In this document: piece by piece, positions 2,196 to 45,363 of the stretch | Position numbering within the stretch: the stretch's first letter is position 1 | How the letters are laid out: each line of letters starts with the position of its first letter | Assembly: GCA_016432485.1 (NCBI GenBank) | Contig: CP066691.1 | Coordinates: 281,762-345,761, forward strand | Direction: 5' to 3' | Origin: Candidatus Niyogibacteria bacterium | Lineage (GTDB): Bacteria > Patescibacteriota > Minisyncoccia > HO2-45-28 | DNA: 64,000 bases | The notes under the pieces: generated by a model | Databases searched by the model: none | The model's input: only the letters and a program-made list of their open reading frames with translations | Told to the model about the DNA's origin: nothing | Position numbers and translations under genes: made by a program

Positions 2196-3329
2196 CTATT
2201 CTTTCATATAAGCGTCTCTTGTATATTTATTGCCGGCGTCCCAAACCATCCAGCCAGTTAATCCGGCGTCATAAACGGCCTGCATTTGCGCTCTGACCAT
2301 TCCCGCGTCGTAAGTCGCGCCCAAATCAAAATCCTGCAGCCACGGCCGAAGTTTTGAAGGACTGGAACTCGCGGCCGTCAGACGTCCCGAGGCCACGGTC
2401 ATCGCCTGATGCACGATTTCGTAAGGATGCAGAGCCGGATTTTTAAAATTATTAAAGCCGGGCGGATAGTGGGACGGGTAAACCATGGGAGCTATGTAGT
2501 CAAAATACAAAGCGGCGTTTTCCAAAACCTGACCTATGTTAAGGTCGTCGTAATTAACCGTAACCATTCCGAATAAATCCACGGACAACGGTAATCCGAC
2601 TCCGTCCAATTCCCTCCTTAGATAGGCGAAAAAATCGCCGATGACTTCCGCCGGAGGCGTTACTTCATCCCAATAATCATATTTAATATCTTTCATATTT
2701 CCGTCTGAAGGAAAACGCACATAGTCAAAATTCAGTTCGTCAAAACCCGCTTTTTCCGACGCTTTAGCCACTAAAACGGTATAAGCCCAAAATTCTTTGG
2801 CCGCGGGATCAATCCAAGTTAAACCTTTACGGTCTTTCCAAACACTGCCGTCTTTTTTCTTGACCGCGAGATCCGGACGCTTGGAAACAAAATACGGGTC
2901 CTGAAAAACGCTAATGCGGCCGATTACATATATATTTTTCTGGTGGAGATATTCAATAAATTCTTTAATATCGATTATCCTTTTTTCGGACGAGCCCAAA
3001 TCTTTAATGTGGGCGTCATCCGTTTCAAACGATACCCGCCCGCTGTAATCCTTAATATCAATCACCACGGCGTTAAGTTCGGTTTCCTCCACAAATTTCA
3101 CCAGGTTTTCGCGCCAATCGGCAGTGCCCGCCACCCAGCTGGTCATATAAATAGCGCGAGTCGGCTCCGGCGTCCGAAGATGCTGAATTTTTTCTTGAGA
3201 AGGCGCGGCTATTTCATTTCCCGGAGCGATATAAGAAATGCGGTTGTTGCCGCCAAAAACCAAAAAAAGAGACGCGACTCCGATAAAAGCGGCCGCCCCT
3301 AATCCAAAGTAATTTTTGAATCTGCCCAT
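2196..3329 (-). CDS. putative TIM-barrel glycoside-hydrolase-like protein (DUF4015/GHL-like), membrane-anchored
   Basis: N-terminal TM. Strand-acid pattern (NAVVIDIKDYSGRVSF, FDELNFDYVRFP) resembles the GH-like DUF4015 family. The 5' end overlaps the next ORF, so the real start is probably an internal Met. Confidence 0.45.
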   Translation of the reverse strand: MGRFKNYFGLGAAAFIGVASLFLVFGGNNRISYIAPGNEIAAPSQEKIQHLRTPEPTRAIYMTSWVAGTADWRENLVKFVEETELNAVVIDIKDYSGRVSFETDDAHIKDLGSSEKRIIDIKEFIEYLHQKNIYVIGRISVFQDPYFVSKRPDLAVKKKDGSVWKDRKGLTWIDPAAKEFWAYTVLVAKASEKAGFDELNFDYVRFPSDGNMKDIKYDYWDEVTPPAEVIGDFFAYLRRELDGVGLPLSVDLFGMVTVNYDDLNIGQVLENAALYFDYIAPMVYPSHYPPGFNNFKNPALHPYEIVHQAMTVASGRLTAASSSPSKLRPWLQDFDLGATYDAGMVRAQMQAVYDAGLTGWMVWDAGNKYTRDAYMKE

Positions 3330-4474
3330 CCATTCATTATAGCTTGATTAATCTTTCCCAAAAACCTCTGGCCGTTCATGAGAACCGCGCCTATGACGCG
3401 ATTATCTTTCATAAAAATTTTTATATGCTCTTTTTTTTCTTTATCAAAGCGGATTTCTTCGGTTTTTACGCCGAACTTTTCGTCAAAGGGGCCGACATCG
3501 CCGACAAAAGAGATATTTACGCCCAAATGGCTGATGGCGTAAACCGGAATATTTTTAAACGATTCTTTGCCGCCCGCCATATTAAGTCCCGCCGTCCTGC
3601 CCTGCATAAAAGCGCCCGACCAGTTTCCGCCAGAACGTCTTCTCCCGGAAAAACGGTCTTTATACGAGGCGACATCTCCGGCCGCCCACACATTTGGAGT
3701 CCCGGTTTCCAAATGCTCATTTACTTCCAGGCCCCCGCTTGGCGGTTTAATCGCCGCATGGGGCAGAAAGTCCAAATTTCTATCAAGACCTATACCAACG
3801 CCAACGAAGTCGGCATCTAGTTCCGCGCTGTTTTTTATCTCACGGCCAAAAATGGTCTCAATCCCGTTTTTTTGCCACAAATCCTTTAAAATTCCGAAAC
3901 CCGTTTCATCCAAAAAATCCGGCCAAAAATACTTTTCGGCGCACAATAATTTTATTTTCCATCCGTATTTTGCCAAAATCGCGATAAACTCCAAAGCCAT
4001 AAAACCTCCGCCGACGACCAGCGCCGTACCCGACGGACGCGAAGACAAAAACTCCTTAATCTTCAAAGCGTCGTCCAGCGTTTGAAGGCGAAAAATATTG
4101 CCGGGTAACAAGGTTTCAAAGTTCCATAATTTTGGCCGGCCTCCGGAGGCAATAAGAATTTTTTTAGCGCGAAATTCTTTGCCGGAAATAGTTTTAAGCG
4201 TCATAGTCTGCGAATTAAAATCGCAAACTGACTCATTCAAAAAAATATCAATGCCGTTTTTTTTATAATCGCCGGCTGTTCTCAACATCACTTTATCCAG
4301 CTCAATCTCTTTGCGGATAAATTCCGGCAAAAGAACTCTTGAATACAAAAAATGCGGCTCGCCGCAGATTAATGCGACAGAACCATTTTGGTCTTTTTGG
4401 CGTATGGTTTCTGCGGCAGTCGTTCCGGCAATTCCGCCGCCTATAATCAGATAATCAAAGACGAGTTCGGCCAT
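3299..4474 (-). CDS. FAD-dependent pyridine nucleotide-disulfide oxidoreductase (NADH oxidase/CoA-disulfide reductase-like)
   Basis: IIGGGIAGTTAAE FAD-binding Rossmann motif, a second NAD-binding GGGFMALE motif, and about 390 aa. Confidence 0.75.
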   Translation of the reverse strand: MAELVFDYLIIGGGIAGTTAAETIRQKDQNGSVALICGEPHFLYSRVLLPEFIRKEIELDKVMLRTAGDYKKNGIDIFLNESVCDFNSQTMTLKTISGKEFRAKKILIASGGRPKLWNFETLLPGNIFRLQTLDDALKIKEFLSSRPSGTALVVGGGFMALEFIAILAKYGWKIKLLCAEKYFWPDFLDETGFGILKDLWQKNGIETIFGREIKNSAELDADFVGVGIGLDRNLDFLPHAAIKPPSGGLEVNEHLETGTPNVWAAGDVASYKDRFSGRRRSGGNWSGAFMQGRTAGLNMAGGKESFKNIPVYAISHLGVNISFVGDVGPFDEKFGVKTEEIRFDKEKKEHIKIFMKDNRVIGAVLMNGQRFLGKINQAIMNGWADSKITLD

Positions 4475-29387: not shown

Positions 29388-30089
29388 TTATTTTATTCTT
29401 ATTTTTTTCTCGTTTCGTCCGGCGTAATAATCGCACTTTTTGCACTCCAAATCGTCTCCCGGGTAAGGTTTTTCAAGAAAATCAACCATTTCTTTGAGTT
29501 TCTTTTCAAAATTTTTGGCGTCAATTTTCACTTCGTCCACATGACTCGCGAATTTCACTTCTGTTGACGGGTCGTTTTTGTCTTTGACGAAATAGTGCAG
29601 CAAAAAGGCGCGGTCTGACGGCTTATATCCGTTTTTCAAAAACATATAGCCATAGGCGGCAAGTTGGTCGCGGTAATATTTCTGCTTGTCTTCAGCCGGC
29701 GCGTTGCCGGATGATTTGTAATCGGCCGGAATAAAGCGGCCGTCCGATTCCACAAAAACATCGTCAATTTTTCCGACAAGTTCGTAACCCGAATTTTCAT
29801 TTACCACTTTAAGCGCGCTGGAATTGGTCCGCCACTCGTTGAGAAGTTCCAGATCGTCAAAAGTCCTTATGCCCATTTTCTCAAGCTCCTTGGATTCCGG
29901 CGGAAATTTTTTGTCGGCGCGGTATTTGTCGTATCTGGTCTTTAAAATGCTGTCCATCGCCGTATTTAAAGCCAACGGCAGCATCGGCGGTTTTCTATGA
30001 TGATTCTCAAGCCAAAAACAGGCCTTGCATTCCGTATAAGAATAAAGCCCGCTCGGGCTCAACTTCCATAATCCATTTTTTGTTTTCAT
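29388..30089 (-). CDS. PD-(D/E)xK nuclease, Cas4/RecB-like, with four Cys
   Basis: IDD...ADYK nuclease motif. N-terminal CKAC and C-terminal CKKC pairs, consistent with Cas4-type Fe-S ligation. Confidence 0.55.
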   Translation of the reverse strand: MKTKNGLWKLSPSGLYSYTECKACFWLENHHRKPPMLPLALNTAMDSILKTRYDKYRADKKFPPESKELEKMGIRTFDDLELLNEWRTNSSALKVVNENSGYELVGKIDDVFVESDGRFIPADYKSSGNAPAEDKQKYYRDQLAAYGYMFLKNGYKPSDRAFLLHYFVKDKNDPSTEVKFASHVDEVKIDAKNFEKKLKEMVDFLEKPYPGDDLECKKCDYYAGRNEKKIRIK

Positions 30090-30556: not shown

Positions 30557-31128
30557 GAATAAAATAGTTCGTTTTTTGTGGTATACTTAAATGTGTATGC
30601 CAAAAGAAAAACGAACATACGCCGACCGCCGAGAGTATTTAAAAATGGCAGTGACCAAAAGACGACGAAGATTAAAAACACTGCTTGTAGAATATAAAGG
30701 CGGGAAATGCACGGTCTGCAGTTATAATAAAACCCCGTGGGCAATGGATCTTCATCATGTTGATGAATCCAAGAAATCATTTGATATGTCCTCACGCGGA
30801 CTTACCCGCTCATGGGAACGTCTTAAAAAAGAGGCAGATAAGTGTGTGTTGCTTTGTGCAAATTGTCACAGAGAAATACACGCCGGCGTAACGCAGCTTC
30901 CTAAAGTAATTTAGGTTGAAAAATCTCGGGATAACGGTGAAGCCCTAAATCTTTTGCATTAGATTGGGTAATACCGTGGGAACCTTTGCTTGTTCGGGGT
31001 TTACTCCGAGCGAAGTCGAGGAGCGCCGTAGAGACTAGATACCGAGATCCCGCCATTCATTTGAAATATTATTTAATGGAGGGGGGGAAAGATATAGTCC
31101 AACCCTAAAAGTAATTTTAGGACCGTTG
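30557..31128 (+). mobile_element. group I intron (about 572 nt) with an embedded HNH homing-endonuclease ORF
   Basis: Lies between tRNA halves. Exon 1 ends in T and the intron ends in G (accgttG). P7-like pairing GAGACTAGA / GATATAGTCC, with the latter close to the Tetrahymena AGATATAGTCGG segment. P9-like hairpin CCTAAAAgtaaTTTTAGG just before the 3' splice site. Confidence 0.6.
30591..30914 (+). CDS. HNH homing endonuclease (intron-encoded)
   Basis: CTVCS...DLHHVD...CANCHREIH HNH/zinc-finger motif; 107 aa, basic. Confidence 0.75.
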   Translation: MCMPKEKRTYADRREYLKMAVTKRRRRLKTLLVEYKGGKCTVCSYNKTPWAMDLHHVDESKKSFDMSSRGLTRSWERLKKEADKCVLLCANCHREIHAGVTQLPKVI

Positions 31129-31234
31129 TAAGGAGTTGGTTGTAGGTTCGAATCCTACCTGCGGAGCCAATAAACTAGATACGAACTCATTTTTTGAAGA
31201 TTAGACCTCTATCAGAGGTCGTATCCAGCGCGGT

Positions 31235-31464: not shown

Positions 31465-34398
31465 ATGTCGGTTTTTCTTAAAAAATATTTGGCTGAAAAA
31501 GTAGCTCTTCAAAAAATGGCCGGCTCTTTGAACCGCCTATCTTCTGTCTTGGCAAAATCAACGATTGACCTCAACCCGTATCAAATTCATGCGGCTCTTT
31601 ACGCATTTAACAGTCCGCTTTCTCGTGGCGCAATTTTGGCCGATGAAGTCGGCTTGGGTAAGACGATTGAAGCCGGCATTATCATATCCCAACTTTGGGC
31701 CGAAGGGAAGAGAAAGATATTAATTCTTGCCCCGGCCTCGTTAAGAAAACAGTGGCAAGATGAGTTGCTTTCAAAATTTGGAATTGAATCAGAAGTTTGG
31801 GACGGCCCCTCTTTTAGGGCGCAAACAGACATGGGAGAAAAGACACCCCTAACTTACAGTGGCGTTTTTATAATTTCTTACCATTTTGCTTACAGCCACC
31901 TTGAATTGATAAGGAAGCAAGGTTGGGCTGTTGTTGTAATAGATGAAGCCCATCGTTTTAGGCGTGTGTTCAAGGGAAGAGATGCCTCAAAAATGGCATA
32001 CGACATTCGGGAAATAATAAAAGATAAACCAAAGGTTTTGCTGACGGCAACACCCCTGCAAAACAGCCTTGAGGAATTATACGGGATAGCAAGTTTTATA
32101 GACGACAAGCTTCTCGGATCATCCTATAGTTTCAAAACGAAGTTCATACAGCCGATAAAGGACCAGTCGGGGTTAGCTAAATTGAGATTGGAGGAATTGA
32201 GGGCATTGATACGCGGGGAAGAAGGCGACGACCCGTCGTCAATCTCCGGAGTAATTACACGGACTTTGAGAAAACAAGTTTTGGAGTATGTGCAATTTAC
32301 CGACAGGACATCAATGACTTTTGACTTTACTCCCACCGAGGAAGAAGTTGAATTGTACGAGAAAGTTTCCGCATACCTCCAGCGTCCTAATGTGGCGGCC
32401 ATTACCGCGACGCAGAGAAATTTGATGATTCTCGTTTACAGAAAATTATTGGCCAGTTCGTCGTTCGCCATAGCCGACACCCTGAAGAAGTTAAGTGAGA
32501 ATCTAAAAAACGAATTGAAGTTGCGAAATAAAGAAGCAGTGGCCGAGGAGTTGAATCCGGAGTCAACGGCAGATGAGGGCCTTTTGGAAGAATTTGAAGA
32601 ATCAGAATTGGAGGGAGTAGAACAAGGTCAGAAGAAAGAAAAGCAACGCGTTGACGATACTTTTAGCGATGACGACATAAAAAAGGAAATAGAGGAGTTG
32701 GAAGGATATTATTCATTGGCAGTCAAAATTAAAGAAAACACAAAGGGTAAAGCGTTGATTAACGCCTTGTCGCAACTTTTCAAACAGGCCAGAGAAAAGA
32801 AGTGGCCTGAAAAAGCTGTGGTGTTCACAGAGTCAACGCGCACTCAGGACTATCTTTTAAAACTTCTCAAAGAAGCCGGAATTTCTTTTACGGAATTCAA
32901 CGGGTCAAATAACTCGCCCGAAGCACGAGAGGCATTCAATCGTTGGAAAAAGGAGTTTCCAGAAGCGGCATCTGTTGGTTCAGCATCTGCCAACACGCGC
33001 CAAGCTCTTATTCATGACTTCAGAACAAATACACAAGTCTTGCTTACCACAGAAGCGGGGGCGGAAGGATTAAACCTCCAGTTTGCAAATATTGTCATCA
33101 ATTATGATTTGCCGTGGAATCCTCAAAGAGTGGAACAGAGAATCGGCCGTTGCCACCGCTACGGCCAAAAGCACCAAGTGGTAGTTGCGAATTTTCTTAA
33201 TACAAAAAATTACGCCGATAAGCGAGTACTGGAATTGTTGAGCGAGAAACTAAATTTATTTAACGGACTTTTTGGAAGTTCCGATGAGATTCTTGGCGCT
33301 TTGGAATCCGGTCTTGATTTTGAAAAGAAGATACTTGAAATTTATCAAAACAGCAGAAGCCCTGAAGAATACGACAAAGCGTTTACAGAACTACAGGAAA
33401 GCTTGAAAGATGTTATCTCAAAAACAACCTTGCAATATAGAAACTTGTTATTGGAAAGCGCGGATCAAGCTGTTGCCGCATTATTCAAAAAAACGGAAGC
33501 GGAAACTAAAAAAGCGATTTCAGATTTTGACAGGGATTTGCTTTTTCTCTGCAAGCTCACGCTGGAAGAAAAGATAAAACCAACCGAGGATGAGGCGATT
33601 TTTGTGATAGATGGTTATAAATTTCCGATTGCTTTTCGAGAGCTTCGCGATGATGAAGAAGGTAAAATTTCCCGCGCGCACAAAGACCATCCAGTCATCA
33701 GTAAAATTATTGAAGATAATTTGAAACTGCAAACTAAGCCGATACCTTCTTTGATTTTTGAGCTTTCAAAACACGGCGGTAAAATATCCCAGTTGAGCGA
33801 CGCTAAAGTAAAAGAAGGATTTATATTTCTTTGGAAGTTAAAGATAGCCGGAGTCGAGACGGAAGAAATTTTAGTGCCGCTCGTTTTTCTCGAAAAAACA
33901 GAAGGCGAATTCAGCGCATTGGATGTGGCAATTGCCAATGAATTCATTGATGTGGAAAGTGTTGATTCTGAAAAAACACTTGAGAGTTCGCCTATTAAAA
34001 AAGAGTTTTTGCTTCAAACTTGGGAAAAATGGAAAAAGCCAGTTGTAGAAAGGTATCAGAAAAGAAATGAGCGTCTTTTTGACAGGGAGACGAACAGGAT
34101 AAACCGATATTACGACGACTACGCGCTTCGTGTTGAAGATAGGATGAAAAAGTCGGAAAATGAACAAAAGGATGTAAATCGTAGGAGAGATAATTCCTCC
34201 GACTTGGAAGAAAGGCGGAAGTTGCTCAAGCGAATTCAAGACATCAATATTGCTTTGGACAAGCTAAGAATCCAGCAGTTGAAGTTGAGACAAGAAGGTG
34301 CGAAATTGCGAGAAAAAGAACTGGACAATCTTTGGAAAACTCTGGAGCCGAAAATTTCCGAAGAAATGATTGCGATAACGCATTTCACCATTCAATAA
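31465..34398 (+). CDS. SNF2-family DNA-dependent ATPase/translocase with a roughly 350-aa C-terminal domain of unknown function
   Basis: Motif I DEVGLGKT, Ia PASLRKQWQDE, II DEAH, III TATPLQNSLEELY, helicase-C motifs (TEAGAEGLNLQ, QRIGRCHRYGQ). Acidic insert between lobes; coiled-coil C-terminus. Confidence 0.85.
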   Translation: MSVFLKKYLAEKVALQKMAGSLNRLSSVLAKSTIDLNPYQIHAALYAFNSPLSRGAILADEVGLGKTIEAGIIISQLWAEGKRKILILAPASLRKQWQDELLSKFGIESEVWDGPSFRAQTDMGEKTPLTYSGVFIISYHFAYSHLELIRKQGWAVVVIDEAHRFRRVFKGRDASKMAYDIREIIKDKPKVLLTATPLQNSLEELYGIASFIDDKLLGSSYSFKTKFIQPIKDQSGLAKLRLEELRALIRGEEGDDPSSISGVITRTLRKQVLEYVQFTDRTSMTFDFTPTEEEVELYEKVSAYLQRPNVAAITATQRNLMILVYRKLLASSSFAIADTLKKLSENLKNELKLRNKEAVAEELNPESTADEGLLEEFEESELEGVEQGQKKEKQRVDDTFSDDDIKKEIEELEGYYSLAVKIKENTKGKALINALSQLFKQAREKKWPEKAVVFTESTRTQDYLLKLLKEAGISFTEFNGSNNSPEAREAFNRWKKEFPEAASVGSASANTRQALIHDFRTNTQVLLTTEAGAEGLNLQFANIVINYDLPWNPQRVEQRIGRCHRYGQKHQVVVANFLNTKNYADKRVLELLSEKLNLFNGLFGSSDEILGALESGLDFEKKILEIYQNSRSPEEYDKAFTELQESLKDVISKTTLQYRNLLLESADQAVAALFKKTEAETKKAISDFDRDLLFLCKLTLEEKIKPTEDEAIFVIDGYKFPIAFRELRDDEEGKISRAHKDHPVISKIIEDNLKLQTKPIPSLIFELSKHGGKISQLSDAKVKEGFIFLWKLKIAGVETEEILVPLVFLEKTEGEFSALDVAIANEFIDVESVDSEKTLESSPIKKEFLLQTWEKWKKPVVERYQKRNERLFDRETNRINRYYDDYALRVEDRMKKSENEQKDVNRRRDNSSDLEERRKLLKRIQDINIALDKLRIQQLKLRQEGAKLREKELDNLWKTLEPKISEEMIAITHFTIQ

Positions 34399-34399
34399 T

Positions 34400-35374
34400 A
34401 TGTCAACGGAAATTAAACAAAAAAAACAGGACTTGGGAATTTTTTACACCGACCAGAGAATCGTGAGTTTTATATATGATATTCTTTCTGTCTGGAAAGC
34501 AAAAGAGGACGAGGATTTAAAGCGTTGGGAGAGTCGAAAACCTCATGCTCACTATCCGTCAGTTATTGATCCGGCTTGCGGCGAGGGAATCTTCTTAAAG
34601 AAAGCAGTGGAGTCCGGTTTTACCGGATACAATCCTACACATAAAGTGCCATATATTTTCGGTATTGATATAGATGAATCGGTTGTTGATAAATGGGAAT
34701 CTGTTGAGCTTCTAAATTTTTTCCACGAAGACAGAAGGGCAATGAAAAATCACTTTTATGGCCAAAACGGATTGCTTAATCTGCCGAATAGAAAATTGCC
34801 TTACAAAAAAATGGAAGACGGACTTGTACAATTTGATGCGGTTGTTGGTAATCCGCCGTATGGAGGCATCGGTCTTAAAGAAGAAGAAATGAGGGGCAAA
34901 TTGGCGGCATCCCTTTTGGAGTACGAGATATGGAAATACGCTTTTGATATACAAATAAGCAAGCAGGGAAATATGTTTGGATCCATGGCCTCTCAAAAGG
35001 ACATTGTAAATAGATTGAGAAATATGCCCATCGAAATTTTATTTCTAGAGAGATTTATACAACTTGCAAAGCCGGGCGGTTGGATAGCTATCATTATTCC
35101 AGACGGCATTTTAACCAATTCAAATTCTCACTATGTACGCGAATTTGTTAGCGAGAAAGCAAGAGTGGAAGCAATTGTTTCTTTGCCGCGAGACGCTTTC
35201 AAAAATGTTGGCACAACAGCCAAAACCAGCATTTTATTTTTACAAAAATATAAAGACCAAGGGAAAGAGCGAGATTTAAACTATCCGGTTTTTCTCGCTT
35301 CAGTCGAATCTCTTGAAGAAAAATATTTTAAAATTATAAAAGATGCTTACCAAAAGCATTATACAAAAATATGA
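34400..35374 (+). CDS. gamma-class N6-adenine DNA methyltransferase (HsdM/Eco57I-like catalytic module without TRD)
   Basis: Motif I DPACGEGIFL and motif IV VVGNPPYGG; the start is 2 nt after the SNF2 stop. Confidence 0.8.
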   Translation: MSTEIKQKKQDLGIFYTDQRIVSFIYDILSVWKAKEDEDLKRWESRKPHAHYPSVIDPACGEGIFLKKAVESGFTGYNPTHKVPYIFGIDIDESVVDKWESVELLNFFHEDRRAMKNHFYGQNGLLNLPNRKLPYKKMEDGLVQFDAVVGNPPYGGIGLKEEEMRGKLAASLLEYEIWKYAFDIQISKQGNMFGSMASQKDIVNRLRNMPIEILFLERFIQLAKPGGWIAIIIPDGILTNSNSHYVREFVSEKARVEAIVSLPRDAFKNVGTTAKTSILFLQKYKDQGKERDLNYPVFLASVESLEEKYFKIIKDAYQKHYTKI

Positions 35375-36198
35375 GCAAGAAAAATTTAGTTCAAATAACA
35401 ACAGATGAAAAAGGTCGGGAAATCGTAATGGTACGAGTGGATAAAACCCTGAAAGAAATGATGGAAGAAAAACCATCAAGTAGATGGAATGCTGCTTACT
35501 GGCATCCAACCTATGTTAAAAATTCAGAAGAAATAGCAGCAAGTAATTTTTCTGTAATTAAAATAGGCGACGCGGAAGAAAGATTGACTTATGGCGCAAT
35601 CGTTACTGGCGGGAAAAATTATGAGGGGAAGGGAGTATTTTTAGTCAATCAGGGAGATATCCAATTTACCGGATTAGATAATACGAATTTGAAAGAAGTT
35701 AAAAAAGCTTCTCCTTGGAATATTGAACGCGCAAAGGTTAAACTTAATTCTTTGATTTTAGCTCGATCTGGAGTTGGAGGAGTTGGTAAAAATCGAATTA
35801 CTATTATAACCAAGCCAATGAATGCGGTGGTAGATAGTTTTGTTGATGTTTTAGACCTAGACGATAAAAAAATTAATCCTGTTTATGTACTTGTCTTTTG
35901 GAAAACTATGTTTGGGAAATTACAAATTGAAAGAATAATAAATGGCGTTGGAACTGTAAATATTAGTTTTGATGAAATTAGAGAAATGAAAATACTTGAT
36001 ATTTCGGAAGGTGTTCAAGGCAATATTGAATCCGAATATAAAAAAATATCTGTCTTTCACGACAAGGCAATGGAAGCAAAGAAAAAGGGCAAGGATGTGG
36101 AATACAAAGCTAACATGGAAACCGCCGAGAGAATGCTGAAAGATTTAATCGCTAAAACCGAAGCCGTTATTCGCGGCGAGAAAAAAGATGTAATTTAA
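35371..36198 (+). CDS. HsdS-like DNA specificity protein with a single target-recognition domain
   Basis: TRD-like pattern (LTYGAIVTGG..., LILARSGVGGVGKNRITI, INGVGTVNISFDEIREMKILDISE) plus a helical conserved region. Overlaps the MTase stop by 4 nt. Confidence 0.7.
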   Translation: MSKKNLVQITTDEKGREIVMVRVDKTLKEMMEEKPSSRWNAAYWHPTYVKNSEEIAASNFSVIKIGDAEERLTYGAIVTGGKNYEGKGVFLVNQGDIQFTGLDNTNLKEVKKASPWNIERAKVKLNSLILARSGVGGVGKNRITIITKPMNAVVDSFVDVLDLDDKKINPVYVLVFWKTMFGKLQIERIINGVGTVNISFDEIREMKILDISEGVQGNIESEYKKISVFHDKAMEAKKKGKDVEYKANMETAERMLKDLIAKTEAVIRGEKKDVI

Positions 36199-36203
36199 TT
36201 TTT

Positions 36204-37997
36204 ATGCCAGAACAAAGGTCGGAAAATTCTTATATCGTAAACGACATCTTACCGTTTCTGGCAAGCAATTTTGGCTACCCGATTCATGACGCGGAGCGAG
36301 TAAAAATAAACGATGTTCCGATTTTTCGGCCAAGCGGCGGCAGAAGTGGGTCCACAATTGATATTGTCTACTATCATAACGGGGAGCCAGTTCTTCTCAT
36401 TGAAGCAAAAACTAAACATAAAACTCATGAGTCCGCATTGATAGAAGCAAAGAATTATCTAAAAAACTTTCCCATAGACAAACCGGAGTTTGCTCCGTCT
36501 GGCTTGCCCCCAAAAATTTTGGCAACAACAGTCGGTAAAAACATTAAATTTTACAAATGGAGCATAGATTATTCAAAACCAATTCCGGATTTTATAACCG
36601 AAGAAATTGAGGTTTTATCATTTGAGAAGTTGCTTTCCTACTACGGATTAATTAAAGAATATAAGGCGCGCATTTTAGAGCCCAAAAACTTTGCCACGGA
36701 TTTTTTTGACGAACTAATTTCTATTTTCAAATTTCATAAAAAAGAGAAAAAAATAACAAAGGATGTTGTCAAAGAAGTTGTTTATCAAATTCACAATTAT
36801 TTGCTGAATCCAAAAAAATACACCGGCGATTATCCTTACACCGAATTGGACTTACAAGGACAAAAAGCCGTTCGCGATCTGTTTAAGCGATTTGATTTTG
36901 TCGCTTCGCTTGGCCCGGAAATAGCCAAAGAATTTCGCAAGTCGATTTTGAGATCTTTTCAAGGCGAAGAATTCAATCAGTACCTTACCGAAAAATGCGT
37001 TATAGATTTTGTTTTCGGTCTGATTGGCAAATTGAACAAACACACGAAAGTTTTGGATTTCGAGTGTGGTAGTGGAGGATTTTTGGCGACGGCAGTCAAT
37101 CAGAACAATTTGGATTTGGAAAATGTGATGGGGATTGATATTGAGGACTTGCCTTATATCATCGCCAAAACTTACTTTGCTCTGTACTTCGGAAAAACCG
37201 GTGAGGGGTTGAATCTTGTCCCAATAAAGAAAGATAACGGCTTGTTTTATCACGGCAAGAATTGGGATTTAGTTGTGGGCAATCCCGCCGGAAGCAGTAA
37301 ATACGAACATGGCGATGAAGATAAAATTTTTGAGAATCTAAATAGTGATTTAAATAACGACGACAAAAAAGATAAAATTTCGGAGTACAATTTGTCAATT
37401 CAGCAAGCGATTCAATCCGCTCGCGTTGGCGGCAAGATTTGTTTGATACTGCCTGAAGGAGTGTTTTCAAATTCTCAAGACGAGTTTTTAAGAAAATATA
37501 TCGCCAAATATTGCAATATATTGGCAATCGTGAGCTTGCCACCGGGGTCGTTCAGAAGAGGAACAACAGTAAGCCAGTTAAGGAGAGGCGCACAATCTGC
37601 TTCAATGAAAATGTCTATTGTGTACGCGGAAAAAACCAGAGAGGTCAGGAAAAAAGAAGGATTGGAAGTTGATTTGAGGCATTTGGACTACCCGATATTT
37701 TTAGCGCACATTGATAAGGTTGATTCCGGATCAGGCGAAATCAGTGAATGGCTGGAGGAAAGATTAAACGTTGTGTTGGAGCAATGGAAAGAGTGGCAGA
37801 ATAAAGCTGAATTGAATGATATTGAAAAAATAACCACAAAGCTTGATAAAGAAGAAAAGATAAAAGAAAATCAAAAAACTTTGTTTAGCAAGGTCGAGCT
37901 CGACAAGACAAACATAGAAAAAAGTAAAAAGATAAAACCAAAAGAGGGTAAGTCAGAAACAAAGATAAGCAAAAACTTGGAAGATTTATTAAGTTAA
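36204..37997 (+). CDS. HsdR_N-type PD-(D/E)xK nuclease fused to a paralogous N6-MTase-like domain with a degenerate motif IV (NPAG) and a Lys-rich coiled-coil tail
   Basis: N-terminus GSTIDIVYYHNGEPVLLIEAKTK (D...ExK). MTase-like domain has motif I LDFECGSGGFLATAV but VVGNPAGSS in place of NPPY. Collinear similarity to the 34400-35374 protein (MGIDIE vs FGIDID, GGKICLILPEGV vs GGWIAIIIPDGI, AIVSLPP vs AIVSLPR). Confidence 0.7.
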   Translation: MPEQRSENSYIVNDILPFLASNFGYPIHDAERVKINDVPIFRPSGGRSGSTIDIVYYHNGEPVLLIEAKTKHKTHESALIEAKNYLKNFPIDKPEFAPSGLPPKILATTVGKNIKFYKWSIDYSKPIPDFITEEIEVLSFEKLLSYYGLIKEYKARILEPKNFATDFFDELISIFKFHKKEKKITKDVVKEVVYQIHNYLLNPKKYTGDYPYTELDLQGQKAVRDLFKRFDFVASLGPEIAKEFRKSILRSFQGEEFNQYLTEKCVIDFVFGLIGKLNKHTKVLDFECGSGGFLATAVNQNNLDLENVMGIDIEDLPYIIAKTYFALYFGKTGEGLNLVPIKKDNGLFYHGKNWDLVVGNPAGSSKYEHGDEDKIFENLNSDLNNDDKKDKISEYNLSIQQAIQSARVGGKICLILPEGVFSNSQDEFLRKYIAKYCNILAIVSLPPGSFRRGTTVSQLRRGAQSASMKMSIVYAEKTREVRKKEGLEVDLRHLDYPIFLAHIDKVDSGSGEISEWLEERLNVVLEQWKEWQNKAELNDIEKITTKLDKEEKIKENQKTLFSKVELDKTNIEKSKKIKPKEGKSETKISKNLEDLLS

Positions 37998-40311: not shown

Positions 40312-41136
40312 ATGAACGAATTTGAATATATTAAACAGCATCTGCTCAATAGATTAGAAATTGATCGCGGATACTCTCATGGTGGGGCCCAGCGTATTTT
40401 AAGAGAACAACTAAATGAATGGGAAAAAAGAAAAAATGGCATTAAAGATTTATATGGCTTGTATAGACAATTTCTTATAAGCGCGCAAAATCGGCAGGGC
40501 ATGCCTAACATTATAGGGGGAGAAAAAGGGGTTGATGAAATTTTAGAAAAAGTCATTAAGACACGACGACTTGATAAAATTGTGGAAAACTTTAAATCAC
40601 CGGAAATTCTCTTTGAGAAAATTAAAAAGGTGAGTATAACAAAAAAACATACACTGAAAAGCTCTAAAAATACATGGATTGGTTTTTGTAAATCTGTTAT
40701 ATCCAGCGCGGAGTTTTTAAAGCAGTTTAAAGATTTAAACGATTTTAGAAAGTTTGCGGATTCTTTGTATAAAGTGAGGGGAGCGCGTATGGCTCTGCCT
40801 CTTATCATAAGTGCGGAAGTTAGCGGGATTGGGTTGGCATTGGCTTGTGATATTTTAAAAGAAAGCGGATACCCAGATTATGTTAAACCCGATATTTGGA
40901 TTAAGCGCTTTGCAAAAGCTTTTGAAATTACAAAGTCAAACAGCGACTACAGAATAGCGGAGGATCTCGTGGCTTATAGTAAATCTATTAACGAACTGCC
41001 GTATGTGGTTGATAAGGCGTTCTGGTTAACTGGTAGCGGAGATTTTTATCTTAGTGGAGATAAAATCGAAAGAGTTAAAAAAGAAGATATAGAAAGTTTT
41101 GTTGAAAAATATAAAAAAGAGAAATTAACCCCATGA
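40312..41136 (+). CDS. hypothetical protein with an HhH-GPD-like motif (possible DNA glycosylase fold)
   Basis: LPLIISAEVSGIGLALACDIL followed by VKPDIWIKRF resembles the EndoIII LPGVG...VDTHIFRV arrangement. Confidence 0.35.
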   Translation: MNEFEYIKQHLLNRLEIDRGYSHGGAQRILREQLNEWEKRKNGIKDLYGLYRQFLISAQNRQGMPNIIGGEKGVDEILEKVIKTRRLDKIVENFKSPEILFEKIKKVSITKKHTLKSSKNTWIGFCKSVISSAEFLKQFKDLNDFRKFADSLYKVRGARMALPLIISAEVSGIGLALACDILKESGYPDYVKPDIWIKRFAKAFEITKSNSDYRIAEDLVAYSKSINELPYVVDKAFWLTGSGDFYLSGDKIERVKKEDIESFVEKYKKEKLTP

Positions 41137-41474
41137 CCTCAATTTTAATTTCCATAATTATTTTTCTTGCCGTGGCAGTTTTGGTGCTGGCTGTTTTTGC
41201 GCGTAAAGAAGCGGAAAAACACGGCACGAATACGAAAGATGAATTTGTCGGTATCTGCGCCTCGGCAATTGAGACGGCTTCGGAAAAAGAATCTCGCAAG
41301 CAAAAGGCGCTGGCTATGTTTGAGCGGAAAAAAGAACTCTCCAACGCCGAAATCCGCAAGACGCTCGGCGTATCTAGCCGCACGGCCGTGCGCTATTTAG
41401 ATGAATTGGAAGCGGAGGGCAAAATAGAGCAAGTCGGCAAAATCGGCCACGCCGTCACCTACCGTCTAAAATAA
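41133..41474 (+). CDS. membrane-anchored winged-HTH DNA-binding protein
   Basis: N-terminal TM plus C-terminal LSNAEIRKTLGVSSRTAVRYLDELEAEGKI HTH. Confidence 0.55.
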   Translation: MTSILISIIIFLAVAVLVLAVFARKEAEKHGTNTKDEFVGICASAIETASEKESRKQKALAMFERKKELSNAEIRKTLGVSSRTAVRYLDELEAEGKIEQVGKIGHAVTYRLK

Positions 41475-41475
41475 A

Positions 41476-41513
41476 ACAACATTCCAACATTCTGCAGAAT
41501 GTTGGAATGTTGT
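41476..41513. promoter_or_regulatory. perfect 38-bp palindrome, ArsR operator candidate, copy 1
   Basis: aacaacattccaacattctgcagaatgttggaatgttgtt, checked base by base. Located immediately upstream of the arsR-like gene. Confidence 0.6.
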
Positions 41514-41536
41514 GGCGGATGTGTTATGTTGTAAAT

Positions 41537-41806
41537 ATGGTAAAGACTTCAAGACAACTGGAAAGATATTTTAAGGGCGCGGCCAACCATCGGCGAATTG
41601 ATATCTTGTTTACGGTTGAAAAAAATGACGGGATTACGGTTGAAGAGATTGCGGATGCTCTGGAGGCAAATTTCAAGACCATCTCCCAGCACACACGCTC
41701 GCTGGTCCATGCCGGTCTGTTGAATAAACAATACCGCGGCCGTCGGGTAGCGCACTCACTTTCTCCCTATGGCAAATTTTTCCTTAAGTTCATGAAAACA
41801 TTCTAA
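41537..41806 (+). CDS. ArsR/SmtB-family transcriptional regulator
   Basis: HRRIDILFTV...ITVEEIADALEANFKTISQHTRSLVHAGLL ArsR HTH. The track start at 41507 overlaps the palindrome, so the likely true start is the ATG at 41537 (MVKTSRQL). Confidence 0.7.
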   Translation: MVKTSRQLERYFKGAANHRRIDILFTVEKNDGITVEEIADALEANFKTISQHTRSLVHAGLLNKQYRGRRVAHSLSPYGKFFLKFMKTF

Positions 41807-41830
41807 CATTCTGCAGAATGTTAGAATGTT
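41797..41830. promoter_or_regulatory. perfect 34-bp palindrome, ArsR operator candidate, copy 2, upstream of tspO
   Basis: aaacattctaacattctgcagaatgttagaatgttt; shares its core with copy 1. Confidence 0.6.
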
Positions 41831-41865
41831 ATGAATGCGCCAGACGAGTGGCGTATTGAAAAAAA

Positions 41866-42375
41866 ATGAAAATCGGTAATATTTTAAAACTCACTATTGC
41901 GATTGCGGTGTCGGAATTGGCCGGTGTGATCGGCTCGTTTTTTACTGTTTCTTCAATTCCAAATTGGTATGCCGGGCTGGTGAAGCCGGCGCTCAATCCT
42001 CCTGCTTGGGTATTTGGACCCGCGTGGACTATGCTTTACGCGTTGATGGGCATTTCGCTTTTTTTGATCTGGAAGATCAACCCTTCCGAAGCTCGCGTCG
42101 GCGAGCGTAGGAGGGCCGTCACATTATTTTTCATCCAGCTTTTCTTAAACGCAATCTGGTCAATTATTTTCTTTGGCCTGCATGGTTCAACATGGCTCAC
42201 CATAAACAATCTCGGCTGGGCATTGGTTGATATCATTCTTCTCTGGCTCGCGATCGTCTGGACAATGGTTGTATTCTACAAAATTTCTCGCCCGGCGGCA
42301 TATCTCCTCGTGCCGTATCTTCTCTGGGTAAGTTTCGCGATGTATTTAAACTACGCGATCTGGGCATTAAATTGA
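41866..42375 (+). CDS. tspO: TspO/MBR tryptophan-rich sensory protein
   Basis: Five TM helices; conserved NPPAWVFGPAWTMLY and W-rich segments. Confidence 0.85.
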   Translation: MKIGNILKLTIAIAVSELAGVIGSFFTVSSIPNWYAGLVKPALNPPAWVFGPAWTMLYALMGISLFLIWKINPSEARVGERRRAVTLFFIQLFLNAIWSIIFFGLHGSTWLTINNLGWALVDIILLWLAIVWTMVVFYKISRPAAYLLVPYLLWVSFAMYLNYAIWALN

Positions 42376-43002: not shown

Positions 43003-44415
43003 TTGGGCGATAATGGGGATGTGAAGCATAAATCCTCGATTCTACCAATAGTGGCGGTATTATTCTTTTTTGAGATAATGCTTGTCAATGCGCAAGCAGA
43101 TTTTATATTCTCAAAAACACTTCGGAAGGGAAATTCTGGAGCAGATGTCCATAAATTACAGGAAGCCCTTGCCGCAATGCCCGATATTTACCCCGAAAAG
43201 CTTGTTACGGGATACTTTGGTGTTCTAACAAGGCAAGCAGTGCGAAGATTTCAGAAAAAATACGGAATTGTTTCTTCGGGCGATGAAAGCACTACGGGAT
43301 ACGGATTGGTCGGGCCCAAAACAAGAAAAAAGCTGAATGAATTTATGGGAGGGCCGCAAGCCGGAATATCACAAGCGACAACGACTCCTTCCGGTTCCGA
43401 ACTAAAAATAAATTCCGCGTTATGTCCGGATAACATTTGGGATGAAGCAGAACAAAAAGATTTGAACCTGTGCCCGGAAGACAATCCGATAAATAATCCG
43501 AAATCCGCAGTCGCGAAAATTGCGCCGCAGGCATCTTCATCTCCGTCTGCGTCGACTACGACACCTCCGCAAATTACACAACCGCTCCCCCCGCCTGTTT
43601 CGACGACAACGCCGCCGTTTAAATGGACAAAAGATTCGGGAATTAGAATTTCTGGAGGACAAGTTCCGTATGTTTACAAACTCAAAGATGGCAGATACCG
43701 CATGTATTATTGCGGCACGAATGGCAGTATTATGTCGGCTATTTCTTCAGACGGACTTAATTTTCAGACAGAATCAGGAGCGCGCTTGTCGCCAATCTAT
43801 GGCGATTTTGAGGCCGTCATTTGCGACCCAACGCTTGTAGAACTGTCAGATGGCCGATTTCGTCTTTACTACAAAGGCGCTAATACCGGCGGTGTGCCGG
43901 CAATACATAAAGTATTTTCGGCCATTTCGTCTGACGGGTTAAATTTTGAACGGGAGGGATTGGTTATAGACTCGGAGAAAACTGACGACCAGAGTTGGGC
44001 AAGCGTACCCGAGGCGATTAAATTATCCGATGGTCGCGTTCGACTTTATTATGTATCAAGGGCTTGCGGCCGCGGCTGTATAGTTTCCGCCATATCAAGT
44101 GACGGCCTAAATTTTACAAAAGAGGAAACGAAAATTTACGATTATGTTGATCCGTCGGTAACACAACTTTCAGACGGCAGGTTTTTTCTTGTTACTGCGA
44201 ATTTTACTTCGCAGGGCGGAACCGAACTTTATAGTTTTATTTCGAGTGACGGTATTCATTTTGACAATGCGAATCCGCAATCGGTAATCGTTGAATCGGT
44301 GGCAGATCCGGCAATTGTGAGGGTGGACGACAAAACTTATAGAATTTATTACTGGAAGATACCAGACAGCTCTCCCGTCATCTATAGCATTACCGGAACA
44401 ATCGCAGGACAGTAG
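43003..44415 (+). CDS. secreted protein with a peptidoglycan-binding domain and five Asp-box (SxDGxNF) repeats, probable beta-propeller
   Basis: Signal peptide; PG_binding_1-like LRKGNSGADVHKLQEAL...LTRQAVRRFQKKYGI; repeated ISSDGLNF motifs. Confidence 0.55.
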   Translation: MGDNGDVKHKSSILPIVAVLFFFEIMLVNAQADFIFSKTLRKGNSGADVHKLQEALAAMPDIYPEKLVTGYFGVLTRQAVRRFQKKYGIVSSGDESTTGYGLVGPKTRKKLNEFMGGPQAGISQATTTPSGSELKINSALCPDNIWDEAEQKDLNLCPEDNPINNPKSAVAKIAPQASSSPSASTTTPPQITQPLPPPVSTTTPPFKWTKDSGIRISGGQVPYVYKLKDGRYRMYYCGTNGSIMSAISSDGLNFQTESGARLSPIYGDFEAVICDPTLVELSDGRFRLYYKGANTGGVPAIHKVFSAISSDGLNFEREGLVIDSEKTDDQSWASVPEAIKLSDGRVRLYYVSRACGRGCIVSAISSDGLNFTKEETKIYDYVDPSVTQLSDGRFFLVTANFTSQGGTELYSFISSDGIHFDNANPQSVIVESVADPAIVRVDDKTYRIYYWKIPDSSPVIYSITGTIAGQ

Positions 44416-44555: not shown

Positions 44556-44616
44556 GGGGGGAGCAAAAACAAAAGCAGACGGCCATGTGTCGTCTGCTTT
44601 TGTTTTTGCTCCCCCC
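44556..44616. repeat. hairpin with a 26-bp perfect stem and 9-nt loop
   Basis: GGGGGGAGCAAAAACAAAAGCAGACG-gccatgtgt-CGTCTGCTTTTGTTTTTGCTCCCCCC. Confidence 0.85.
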
Positions 44617-44694: not shown

Positions 44695-45363
44695 ATGATA
44701 ACAACCGCTATGAAATTACTCCTTACTTCAAACGGGTTTTCAAATCAAGCAATCGCTGACACACTCTTTGAATTGGTCGGCAAGAAGCCGGAAGATACGA
44801 GTTTAGTTTTCATCCCCACCGCCTCAAATGTTGAGGCGGAACATAAAGATTGGTTTATTGACGACCTTATCAATATTAAAAAACAAAACTTCAAATCGGT
44901 CGCCATAACTGACATTTCGGCTGTGCCGGAAAATATCTGGCGCCCGCAACTGGAAGAAGCGGATGTTTTGTTTTTTGAAGGCGGCAACACTTATCACCTC
45001 ATGCGCTGGATAAATGAGTCGGGGCTTATAAAACTTTTGCCGGAAATGCTGAAGTCAAAAGTATATGTTGGCTTGAGCGCGGGAAGCATGGTAACCGGCC
45101 CCGATCTAGACCTCCGCCTTTTCAAAGCGATTTATGGTGAAGAGGCGGAAAAAGATTCGGTGGCTGGACTTGGTCTTGTAGATTTTTATTTTTTACCGCA
45201 TCTCAATAACCCTCACTTCTCCGCGCGGATTGAAGCTAATCTCAAAGAAGTGATGAAAGAAATTAAGAGAAAGACCTATGTACTTGACGATTACTCCGCG
45301 CTAAAGGTAGTTGACGGAAAAGTGGAACATGTCGGTGGCGGGAAATATCTGGAATTTAATTAA
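44695..45363 (+). CDS. peptidase S51 (dipeptidase E/cyanophycinase-like)
   Basis: GLSAGSM nucleophile motif and class-I glutamine-amidotransferase-like fold pattern. Confidence 0.7.
   Translation: MITTAMKLLLTSNGFSNQAIADTLFELVGKKPEDTSLVFIPTASNVEAEHKDWFIDDLINIKKQNFKSVAITDISAVPENIWRPQLEEADVLFFEGGNTYHLMRWINESGLIKLLPEMLKSKVYVGLSAGSMVTGPDLDLRLFKAIYGEEAEKDSVAGLGLVDFYFLPHLNNPHFSARIEANLKEVMKEIKRKTYVLDDYSALKVVDGKVEHVGGGKYLEFN

Follow-up and report, generated by a model that had tools for sequence, protein, structure and literature searches.

A small gene between two perfect palindromes was analyzed in a stretch of 64,000 nucleotides (nt) of a Candidatus Niyogibacteria bacterium (contig CP066691.1, positions 281,762 to 345,761 of the forward strand), which is called the window in the following. 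The gene encodes a winged-helix protein of 89 amino acids (aa), here called the regulator, and the next gene downstream is tspO. The palindromes and the protein encoded between them appear to form a self-contained cassette that is conserved across the Patescibacteria (candidate phyla radiation), and the protein would be a site-specific binder acting genome-wide; the probability of this reading as a whole was put at about 0.6. Because the palindrome is dispersed at promoters, in convergent gaps and in frame inside genes, the protein is better described as such a genome-wide binder, i.e., a repressor or roadblock, than as a regulator devoted to tspO or to metals. The elements of the cassette are as follows, with coordinates of the window and lengths in base pairs (bp):

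41476-41513: palindrome 1, perfect, 38 bp, ACAACATTCCAACATTCTGCAGAATGTTGGAATGTTGT, with a conserved 34-bp core at 41478-41511; candidate autoregulatory binding site.
41502-41507, plus strand: -35-like hexamer TTGGAA at the junction of the two right-arm heptads of palindrome 1, 17 bp upstream of the -10.
41522-41530, plus strand: extended -10 TGtTATGTT (TG at 41522-41523, TATGTT at 41525-41530), ending 6 nt before the ATG at 41537.
41537-41806, plus strand: regulator gene, 89 aa plus stop; minimal winged helix of ArsR/MarR-like fold with the recognition helix NFKTISQHTRSLV.
41797-41830: palindrome 2, perfect, 34 bp, AACATTCTAACATTCTGCAGAATGTTAGAATGTT; second candidate site belonging to the regulator cassette.

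Both palindromes have the same layout of four heptads, AACATTC-N-AACATTC-TGCA-GAATGTT-N-GAATGTT, in which the 7-bp units follow each other at spacings of 8, 11 and 8 bp. They are thus perfect palindromes of 34-38 bp built from four 7-bp units, and not imperfect inverted repeats of the 12-2-12 type. A sequence-only reading of the stretch had already described two perfect palindromes of 38 and 34 bp with an identical core on the two sides of the gene. These were indeed found with the correct lengths, but the strings typed there carried one non-complementary extra base per side (...GTTGTg; aAAC...GTTa). The common core is an 18-mer (AACATTCTGCAGAATGTT), which occurs exactly twice in the window, also when three mismatches were allowed. 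The chance expectation was 0.03 copies, and two copies were reached in none of 100 shuffles. The 3' end of the regulator gene, with the codons K-T-F and the TAA stop (41804-41806), lies in palindrome 2, and 35 nt separate the end of this palindrome from the TspO start at 41866. At the other end, palindrome 1 contains the first ATG of the open reading frame (41507).

The conservation of this arrangement was analyzed with several sets of sequences, and loci are designated by L numbers. The regulator-anchored set consisted of 80 fetched genomic loci, each encoding a relative of the 89-aa protein; in most of these loci the core motif was seen about 50 bp ahead of the start codon and a second time over the stop codon. 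The motif-anchored set contained at least 120 metagenome stretches with the exact 26-base motif and one viral-contig locus (121 loci). In addition, eight Patescibacteria TspO homologs were chosen for long contigs only, blind to regulator and motif, and 120 Patescibacteria YchF homologs were aligned. Pooled over all loci, 114 copies of the regulator were available, from Patescibacteria (about 110). The upstream palindrome was present at a strict symmetry threshold in 93 of the 114 copies, and both palindromes were present in 83; in most of the others they were weaker, displaced or truncated. The center of the upstream site was located about 42 nt before codon 1, with a second class at about 30 nt. 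The position of the downstream site was measured on 104 copies: its center was exactly 10 nt past the last sense codon in 82 of them, whatever gene came next, and the left outer heptad together with the junction was made up by the codons K-T-F-stop (AAA ACA TTC TAA). Very diverse genes came after the cassette, and the next gene was convergent in about 20 loci, which is near the baseline frequency of convergent neighbors. The heptads were more than 90% invariant across deep lineages, i.e., the sequence itself was kept, beyond mere pairing.

The contexts of the cassette varied widely even among regulators with more than 85% identity, and several regulator copies were found on some genomes and contigs. 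Around the regulator, runs of single genes parted by palindromes were often observed, with a shuffled order of the genes (PIF1-like helicase, DUF559/MTES_1575 nuclease, a 331-aa unknown, NYN, PD-(D/E)XK nuclease and TspO). Complementarity of the flanks beyond the palindromes was in excess only over the first 1-3 bp, and a minority had longer perfect extensions. The ratio of G-U to A-C mismatches in the arms was 32:14 for upstream, 21:16 for downstream and 33:33 for other copies; selection at the RNA level was considered on the basis of this asymmetry, which was found to be weak, inconsistent, not phylogenetically independent and not decisive. Insertions exactly at the palindrome center were seen in the downstream palindromes of the regulator in L011, L022 and L062 and in the TspO homolog P0448. 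The insert in L022 is itself palindromic and flanked by duplicated CTGCAG, and the HSxIL...NVRML peptide of P0448 is interrupted in its middle by 13 additional residues. The palindrome center may be a fragile or recombinogenic point.

The -35-like hexamer is formed by the junction of the right-arm heptads, and therefore palindrome 1 carries the regulator's own -35. From the end of palindrome 1 to the extended -10 there are about 11 bp. Also in the relatives a candidate -10 was found at this place: a TAnnnT hexamer was located at +13/+14 past the palindrome in 44 of the 79 upstream sites for which the offset was measured, with a second class at +1. Promoter distances were measured on 94 copies, and in 77 of them a TAnnnT-type -10 ended 3-12 nt (mode 6-7) before the start codon, in 44 of the 77 with TGn. 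A Shine-Dalgarno-like 4-mer preceded the regulator in only seven of the 94 copies. Because the -10 ends 6-7 nt before the ATG and a Shine-Dalgarno sequence is nearly always absent, the sequences imply an mRNA that is leaderless and would start at the ATG 41537. This agrees with the proposal of the earlier reading that the downstream ATG is the true start, which also gives the length of most homologs (88-89 aa). The base at the heptad junction differs between the two sites: it is C/G in upstream copies, which results in TTGGAA, and T/A in downstream copies, which results in the TAA stop in the left arm.

The recognition helix and the center of the palindromes were found to co-vary. By clade, SQHT[RK][SA]L was paired with TGCA, SQHTRRL-type helices with TATA, and SEHTRRL with TTGA/TCAA/TTAA, often together with CACATTC, and the sites of one genome all shared the same palindrome variant. 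The pairing was also observed between paralogs. On contig L035 two paralogs are 1.9 kb apart, and SEHTRRL lies between ...TTGA... palindromes, whereas SQHTRSL lies between ...TGCA... palindromes. On contig L088 a divergent paralog with SEHIRRL is flanked by ATTCC-AATGTTC-TTAA-GAACATT-GGAAT, in which the inner heptad is changed to AATGTTC...GAACATT, and the canonical paralog is flanked by canonical sites. Lineage drift as the cause of the pairing is excluded by these paralog pairs within single contigs, and because the co-variation holds between paralogs on one contig, specific recognition of the palindromes is favored. Taking the conserved positions in about 110 copies and the co-variation together, the palindromes are very probably the binding sites of the protein encoded between them, as had been suspected from the window alone, and autoregulation by the 89-aa protein appears likely. 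In L207 (complete Giovannonibacteria genome CP066687.1) the sites flanking the regulator (2494-2527 and 2813-2846) have the center TGCA and an in-frame site within TspO (3212-3245) has the center TTGA, which suggests that the latter may be served by a second paralog of other specificity.

The AlphaFold model of the regulator (predicted local distance difference test score 90.7) has the topology a1-a2-a3-a4-b1-b2-a5, with helices at residues 5-11, 18-29, 35-42 and 46-58, strands at 62-67 and 70-75 and a last helix at 77-88. This is the winged-helix topology of ArsR/SmtB proteins (a1-a2-a3-aR-b1-b2-a5). In Pfam the protein scored above the cutoffs of HTH_5 (27.5 bits, cutoff 22) and MarR (25.3, cutoff 24.6), and in NCBIfam it scored below the cutoff of HTH_metalloreg (44.3 bits, cutoff 55). 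The structural neighbors retrieved with Foldseek were the cores of MarR, MepR and MexR (template modeling (TM) score of about 0.8 for MarR/MepR) and SmtB, HlyU, ArsR and CadC (0.67-0.73). The MarR structures align with the regulator over the winged-helix core only (TM score normalized to the target about 0.5), and, in contrast to MarR proteins of about 140-150 aa with N- and C-terminal dimerization helices, the regulator has just 89 aa. Among proteins of solved structure, the closest in sequence are HlyU, ArsR, CadC and SmtB, with HlyU as the best (E = 4e-4). The label ArsR, which had been given to the protein at first sight, is acceptable as a statement about fold or superfamily only.

Homologs of the regulator are numerous. 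A large protein collection contained 1230, and the best 120 of them were 78-94% identical, almost all 88-89 aa long, and annotated from Giovannoni-, Sung-, Yanofsky-, Lloyd- and Liptonbacteria and other Parcubacteria. A library of proteins grouped at 50% identity contained 351 clusters of the family with E<=1e-3, of which 94 had E<=1e-10. The regulator has no other domain than the winged helix and no catalytic domain, and a search with PADLOC and NCBIfam revealed generic winged-helix similarities only (such as Csa3 and CasR HTH domains). No homolog was found in 50,697 phage records, and the lone match on a viral contig was the 18-mer core without outer heptads, inside a gene; a phage origin was rejected for these reasons. 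Regulator and palindromes were also seen on contigs L013, L020, L027, L031, L042 and L053 (GC fraction 0.52-0.58), from metagenome-assembled genomes labeled Kiritimatiellia or Verrucomicrobiota. The GC content of the regulator matches the host there, and either horizontal transfer beyond the Patescibacteria or mislabeled bins would account for these contigs.

Control by metal or redox state had been proposed for the regulator. This is not borne out by its sequence, because it contains neither a cysteine nor the metal-site ligands of ArsR/SmtB proteins, i.e., cysteines in alpha3/alpha3N as in ELCVCD or an Asp/His/Glu site in alpha5. Neither ligand set (alpha3N or alpha5) is present in helix 3 (VEEIADAL) and helix 5 (PYGKFFLKFMKT), and neither Cys nor an alpha5 His/Asp/Glu pattern is among the residues conserved across 27 homologs. 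The score for the metalloregulator family was below the cutoff, as described above. The regulator is without a recognizable sensor, and a role in metal or redox sensing is very unlikely.

Copies of the palindrome are not restricted to the regulator gene. In the motif-anchored set, among the matches listed, a regulator was nearby in 30 of the 121 loci, and in 91 the palindrome was away from any regulator. Further sites away from the anchor occurred at about 3-7 per 100 kb, none were present elsewhere in the window, and a genome likely contains tens of copies. At promoters, copies abut TATAAT/TAAAAT boxes before the gene of a membrane-anchored winged helix-turn-helix (wHTH) protein and in L105, L107, L109 and L200. 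About 15 sites lie inside real genes, nearly all of them in frame with the reading xHSNILQNV[G/R]Mx. These genes encode TsaD (three loci), YchF (three), TspO (two), HsdS, a PurN-like formyltransferase, a histidine kinase, MnmA, alanine racemase and a HemK-like methyltransferase. In the case of TspO, the subfamily with the in-frame palindrome has 165 aa, i.e., 7 aa more than the 158 aa of the proteins without it.

In ychF, the segment is equally long with or without the palindrome in the 120 aligned homologs. Many YchF lineages read HSNILQNVRM, HSNILENVRM, HSNILKNVRM or HSNVLENIRM, which is exactly what the canonical palindrome and its TTGA, TTAA and AATGTTC...GAACATT variants encode. This was confirmed on the DNA of two contigs, L202 with CTCATTCTAATGTTCTTGAGAACATTAGAATGAG and L203 with a copy matching in 12 of 14 positions. 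The ychF copy appears to be an old site that is held at the DNA level in an essential gene and tracks the specificity variants. A recent selfish insertion was rejected as its origin, with the unchanged segment length and the occurrence in many lineages as reasons, and a terminator was ruled out by the position inside an essential gene.

The following mechanism is proposed for the cassette. The regulator would bind to each palindrome, probably as two dimers, one per heptad pair. For SmtB more than one dimer per 12-2-12 operator has been reported, and by analogy more than one dimer per heptad palindrome is plausible. At the upstream site the bound regulator would cover the -35 of its own leaderless promoter, resulting in negative autoregulation. 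At the 3' site it would separate its own gene from the downstream gene, here tspO, in the manner of a roadblock or insulator, and read-through would be blocked both ways; the transcribed palindrome 2 would also form a stable 3' hairpin of about -20 kcal/mol. At the other sites the regulator may act as a repressor or roadblock. A wider version is that protein and palindrome constitute an unrecognized genome-wide system of the Patescibacteria with about 10-50 selected sites per genome. In that version the protein would be a roadblock, insulator or chromosome-architecture factor, paralogous protein-site pairs of diverged specificity would work in parallel in one genome, and the cassette would be portable by virtue of its own insulation. 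This extension is tentative and was judged somewhat unlikely.

The genes and elements next to the cassette are the following:

41133-41474, plus strand: gene of a membrane-anchored winged-helix protein, 113 aa, with one N-terminal membrane helix (Pfam HTH_11, 8.3e-8); recurrent partner of the cassette.
41834-41857, without strand: second palindromic hairpin, AATGCGCCA-GACGAG-TGGCGTATT, over the sole space for a tspO promoter; predicted RNA fold -13.4 kcal/mol, z = -5.1.
41866-42375, plus strand: gene of a TspO/MBR membrane protein, 169 aa (Pfam TspO_MBR, 7.5e-48), with 100% identity to a protein from an 837-kb contig of Candidatus Niyogibacteria; most frequent gene downstream of the cassette.

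The sequence-only reading had proposed that TspO is controlled by an ArsR protein via palindrome 2. The part that stood was the neighborhood of the two genes. In the regulator- and motif-anchored loci TspO follows directly after the cassette in the window, L002, L006, L017 and L026, and it is present elsewhere in the locus in several others. In the TspO sample chosen for long contigs, regulator and palindromes were immediately upstream in two of the eight loci (L207 and L211), and the gene order in L207 is that of the window, i.e., membrane wHTH protein, regulator, TspO. The other six had neither regulator nor palindrome within 3 kb. Because two of eight is far above chance for a genome of several hundred genes, the association of regulator and tspO is genuine, but it is optional. 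The part that did not stand was the role of palindrome 2 as an operator specific for tspO. Its position at the regulator stop is fixed in 82 of 104 copies, including about 20 with a convergent next gene, and because the downstream gene is diverse and its orientation irrelevant, palindrome 2 is part of the regulator cassette and not a tspO operator. The tspO genes of relatives have their own leaderless promoter, TAAAAT-N6-ATG, 60-150 nt past the palindrome, and a locus lacking the regulator has it as well (L206). In the window the gap between palindrome 2 and the TspO ATG is 35 nt and is filled by the second hairpin, which is better placed than palindrome 2 over the tspO promoter. Direct control of tspO by the regulator in the window is conceivable but doubtful; it might proceed by co-transcription through palindrome 2 or by a steric influence exerted 52 bp ahead of the TspO start. 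The claim about tspO is thus narrowed: the link exists, metal or redox sensing is unsupported, and tspO is only a small part of a protein-and-site system.

The second hairpin belongs to a motif of its own, AATRCGCCA-N6-TGGCGYATT (long form GAATRCGCCA-N6-TGGCGYATTC), of which about 15 instances were found in the loci, eight of them at 4-5 nt from a heptad palindrome. Instances were observed at L002:1564-1587, L004:4298-4321, L017:4295-4318, L035:4526-4549, L038:4349-4372, L063:3859-3882, L078:2499-2522, L117:3359-3382 and L196:105-128 and just past the regulator in L207. In at least five loci (L001, L002, L063, L117 and L196) the motif is located just past the stop of a membrane winged-helix gene. 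It could be the site of another factor, perhaps of the membrane-anchored winged-helix protein. Homologs of the latter adjoin the regulator in L001, L002, L063, L078 and L207, and a homolog with its own promoter has the order palindrome, TAAAAT, about 6 nt, ATG.

Several observations weigh against the reading as a genome-wide binder and repressor or roadblock. The support for binding is comparative throughout, and the gene calls in the fetched loci are crude, i.e., the longest open reading frames starting with ATG. The direction of regulation could also be opposite, as a site centered near -42 suits a class II activator as well. The sites away from the regulator are unlike classic operators: the intergenic ones were tandem in 40, convergent in 14 and divergent in 3 cases, compared with a baseline of 552, 112 and 98, and a fixed -10 offset was not found at the non-regulator sites. 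Some copies followed by T-runs may double as terminators. A coherent regulon was rejected, as a Pfam analysis of 80 site-adjacent gene starts revealed no theme beyond wHTH, PIF1 and TspO. Looping between the two flanking sites was rejected as obligatory, since the center-to-center distances of 302-355 bp have no helical periodicity.

Three other explanations were weighed against the binder cassette. If the palindromes were nucleic-acid hairpins only, i.e., intrinsic terminators or mRNA-stabilizing stem-loops unrelated to the protein, the very stable predicted RNA folds (-24.9 kcal/mol for palindrome 1 and -19.8 kcal/mol for palindrome 2, z about -7) would be explained. Non-regulator copies favor gene 3' ends and convergent regions, a subset has extra flanking complementarity of arbitrary sequence, and T-runs (five or more T among the adjacent 8 nt) follow 16% of the downstream and 20-24% of the other copies, compared with 5% of the upstream copies. 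But neither palindrome of the window is a GC-rich stem-loop with a directly following U-tract: a T-run on the plus strand is absent 3' of both, a terminator scan flagged palindrome 1 on the minus strand only, and palindrome 1 lies upstream of the inferred transcription start. In addition, sequence and internal direct heptad repeat are conserved, and not pairing alone, and the center, which is uniform per genome, changes together with the recognition helix even for paralogs of one contig. Conserved copies are present in essential genes, where a terminator would be harmful, and some copies at 3' ends stand beside a canonical GC-rich terminator. Hairpins without a binder are thus highly improbable. 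A metal or redox sensor of the ArsR/SmtB type that represses its own gene and tspO via two operators, with release by an effector and induction of tspO, would fit the HTH_5 score above the cutoff, the solved relatives HlyU, ArsR, CadC and SmtB, the seven loci with TspO directly after the regulator (the window, L002, L006, L017, L026, L207 and L211) and the in-frame palindrome in two TspO lineages. It is at odds with the missing cysteines and ligand patterns, the NCBIfam score, the indifference of the downstream palindrome to the next gene and its orientation, the six of eight TspO loci without either element and the tspO promoters of relatives 60-150 nt past the palindrome, and was regarded as quite unlikely.

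The remaining explanation is a mobile or recombinogenic repeat, similar to REP elements, Rickettsia palindromic elements (RPEs) or miniature inverted-repeat transposable elements, in which palindrome-gene-palindrome would be a portable cassette and the protein an accessory binder instead of a host regulator. The bracketing of the gene by two copies resembles that of RAYT genes by REPs, and the varying contexts of closely similar regulators, the multiple copies on some genomes and contigs and the shuffled runs of palindrome-separated single genes are compatible with mobility. Compared with L002 (membrane wHTH gene, palindrome, second hairpin), the window looks like the integration of a regulator plus palindrome at a pre-existing palindrome. 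The in-frame copies in many unrelated genes, the 7 additional aa of palindrome-bearing TspO, the insertions at the center and the presence of the system on high-GC contigs labeled Kiritimatiellia point in the same direction. Against this, no transposase or integrase is among the recurrent neighbors, the protein is without a catalytic domain, and copies are few (about 3-7 per 100 kb near anchors, none elsewhere in the window). In ychF the site takes the place of a native segment without a change in length and has been kept in many lineages, paralogs of one genome are about 85% identical and hence old, and the GC content of the regulator matches the host. A mobile repeat was therefore regarded as unlikely, and the cassette with a genome-wide binder was retained as the preferred reading.

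The system shares features with several known ones. With HlyU, SdpR, BigR and NolR, the non-metal autorepressors of the ArsR/SmtB type, it has in common the small winged-helix topology and a palindrome over its own promoter. In contrast to them, the regulator is shorter (89 aa) and without a Cys pair or metal ligands, the site is the four-heptad palindrome in place of 12-2-12, the stop codon forms part of a second copy, the mRNA is predicted to be leaderless, and tens of further sites are present, some of them intragenic. REP elements with RAYT genes have reportedly been described by Nunvar et al. and by Bertels and Rainey. Both types of palindromes have about 35 bp and are mostly located outside genes and at gene 3' ends, and the gene of the presumed recognizer is flanked by two copies. 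However, the regulator is a bare winged helix and not a Y1 HUH transposase, and its sites number tens and not hundreds, are perfect and conserved across whole bacterial classes, and in part lie in coding sequence. Rickettsia palindromic elements, which Ogata et al. reportedly found in 2000 in frame in unrelated housekeeping genes, also add or replace a short peptide in such genes, but they have 100-150 bp and no dedicated binder, whereas the ychF copy keeps the native length across lineages.

Similarities were also found to parS/ParB, matS/MatP and AspA of Sulfolobus pNOB8, i.e., a short palindrome in a handful to tens of copies that ignore gene features and a binder gene that adjoins sites. 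AspA is an archaeal centromere-binding protein of about 90 aa with an ArsR-like winged helix, and the structural match (4rs8) had a root-mean-square deviation of 1.0 over 66 columns, but the sequence similarity was insignificant (E about 0.7). Unlike in the parS/ParB-type pairs, no partner of the ParA/ParB type recurs beside the regulator. Integron cassettes with attC sites are alike in the site at the end of the open reading frame and in the runs of single genes separated by palindromes, but no recombinase is among the recurrent neighbors here, and the palindromes are perfect and conserved in sequence. In Rfam no family reached the gathering threshold in the region, and the matches were generic hairpins of miRNA precursors only (34.8 versus 80 bits). 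No description of the heptad palindrome, of a link between TspO and ArsR or of this Patescibacteria regulator was found in the searchable literature; a paper on the LexA network of Patescibacteria reportedly concerns a different motif. The protein would be a winged-helix autoregulator with an unusual dispersed network of sites, and there is a fair chance that its genome-wide role is of an undescribed kind.

Gene regulation is little understood in the Patescibacteria, which can hardly be cultivated and possess very few transcription factors. The analysis yields one of their most conserved DNA-binding proteins together with its predicted recognition sequence, the apparent specificity residues and a survey of where its target sites lie. 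Among the natural variants, Q51/S55 go with TGCA and E51/R55 with TTGA, which represents a ready-made case for a recognition code. It is unusual that sites are kept inside essential coding sequence and that the stop codon of the binder gene is fused to one, and both features bear on the insulation of transcription units in compact genomes.

Further observations concern the surroundings of the cassette and the window. Nucleases and helicases (PIF1, DUF559, NYN and Mrr) and restriction-modification genes were frequent around the cassette, and around TspO elsewhere (L205, L208 and L211). In L030 a PD-(D/E)XK (Cas4-like) nuclease follows the cassette (2998-3777), and an apparent relative with an N-terminal CxxC region, as judged by eye, is encoded in the window at 29388-30089 on the minus strand, 11 kb upstream. 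The window contains a low-GC block (0.37-0.39) at 31465-37997, which encodes a 977-aa SNF2-type helicase and N6-adenine methylase-like proteins and has the appearance of a restriction-modification or defense island. It begins at a switch of gene orientation and GC skew. Proximity to the origin or terminus was considered as a clue, but the GC-skew switch near 31 kb coincides with the gene-orientation switch and the low-GC island and is uninformative on the palindromes. At about 30700-31170 a group I intron was found (Rfam RF00028, 30815-31121, 57.3 bits), whose 5' part is overlapped by an HNH-like coding stretch (...CANCHREIH...). It is directly followed by an apparent tRNA 3' half (T-arm GGTTCGAATCC, acceptor end with CCA), which was not called by ARAGORN and looks like that of an intron-split tRNA. 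Between the genes ending at 44415 and starting at 44695 there is an inverted repeat (44556-44616, GGGGGGAGCAAAAACAAAAGCAGACG...) with perfect arms of 26 nt and a spacer of 9 nt, which is unrelated to the heptad palindrome.

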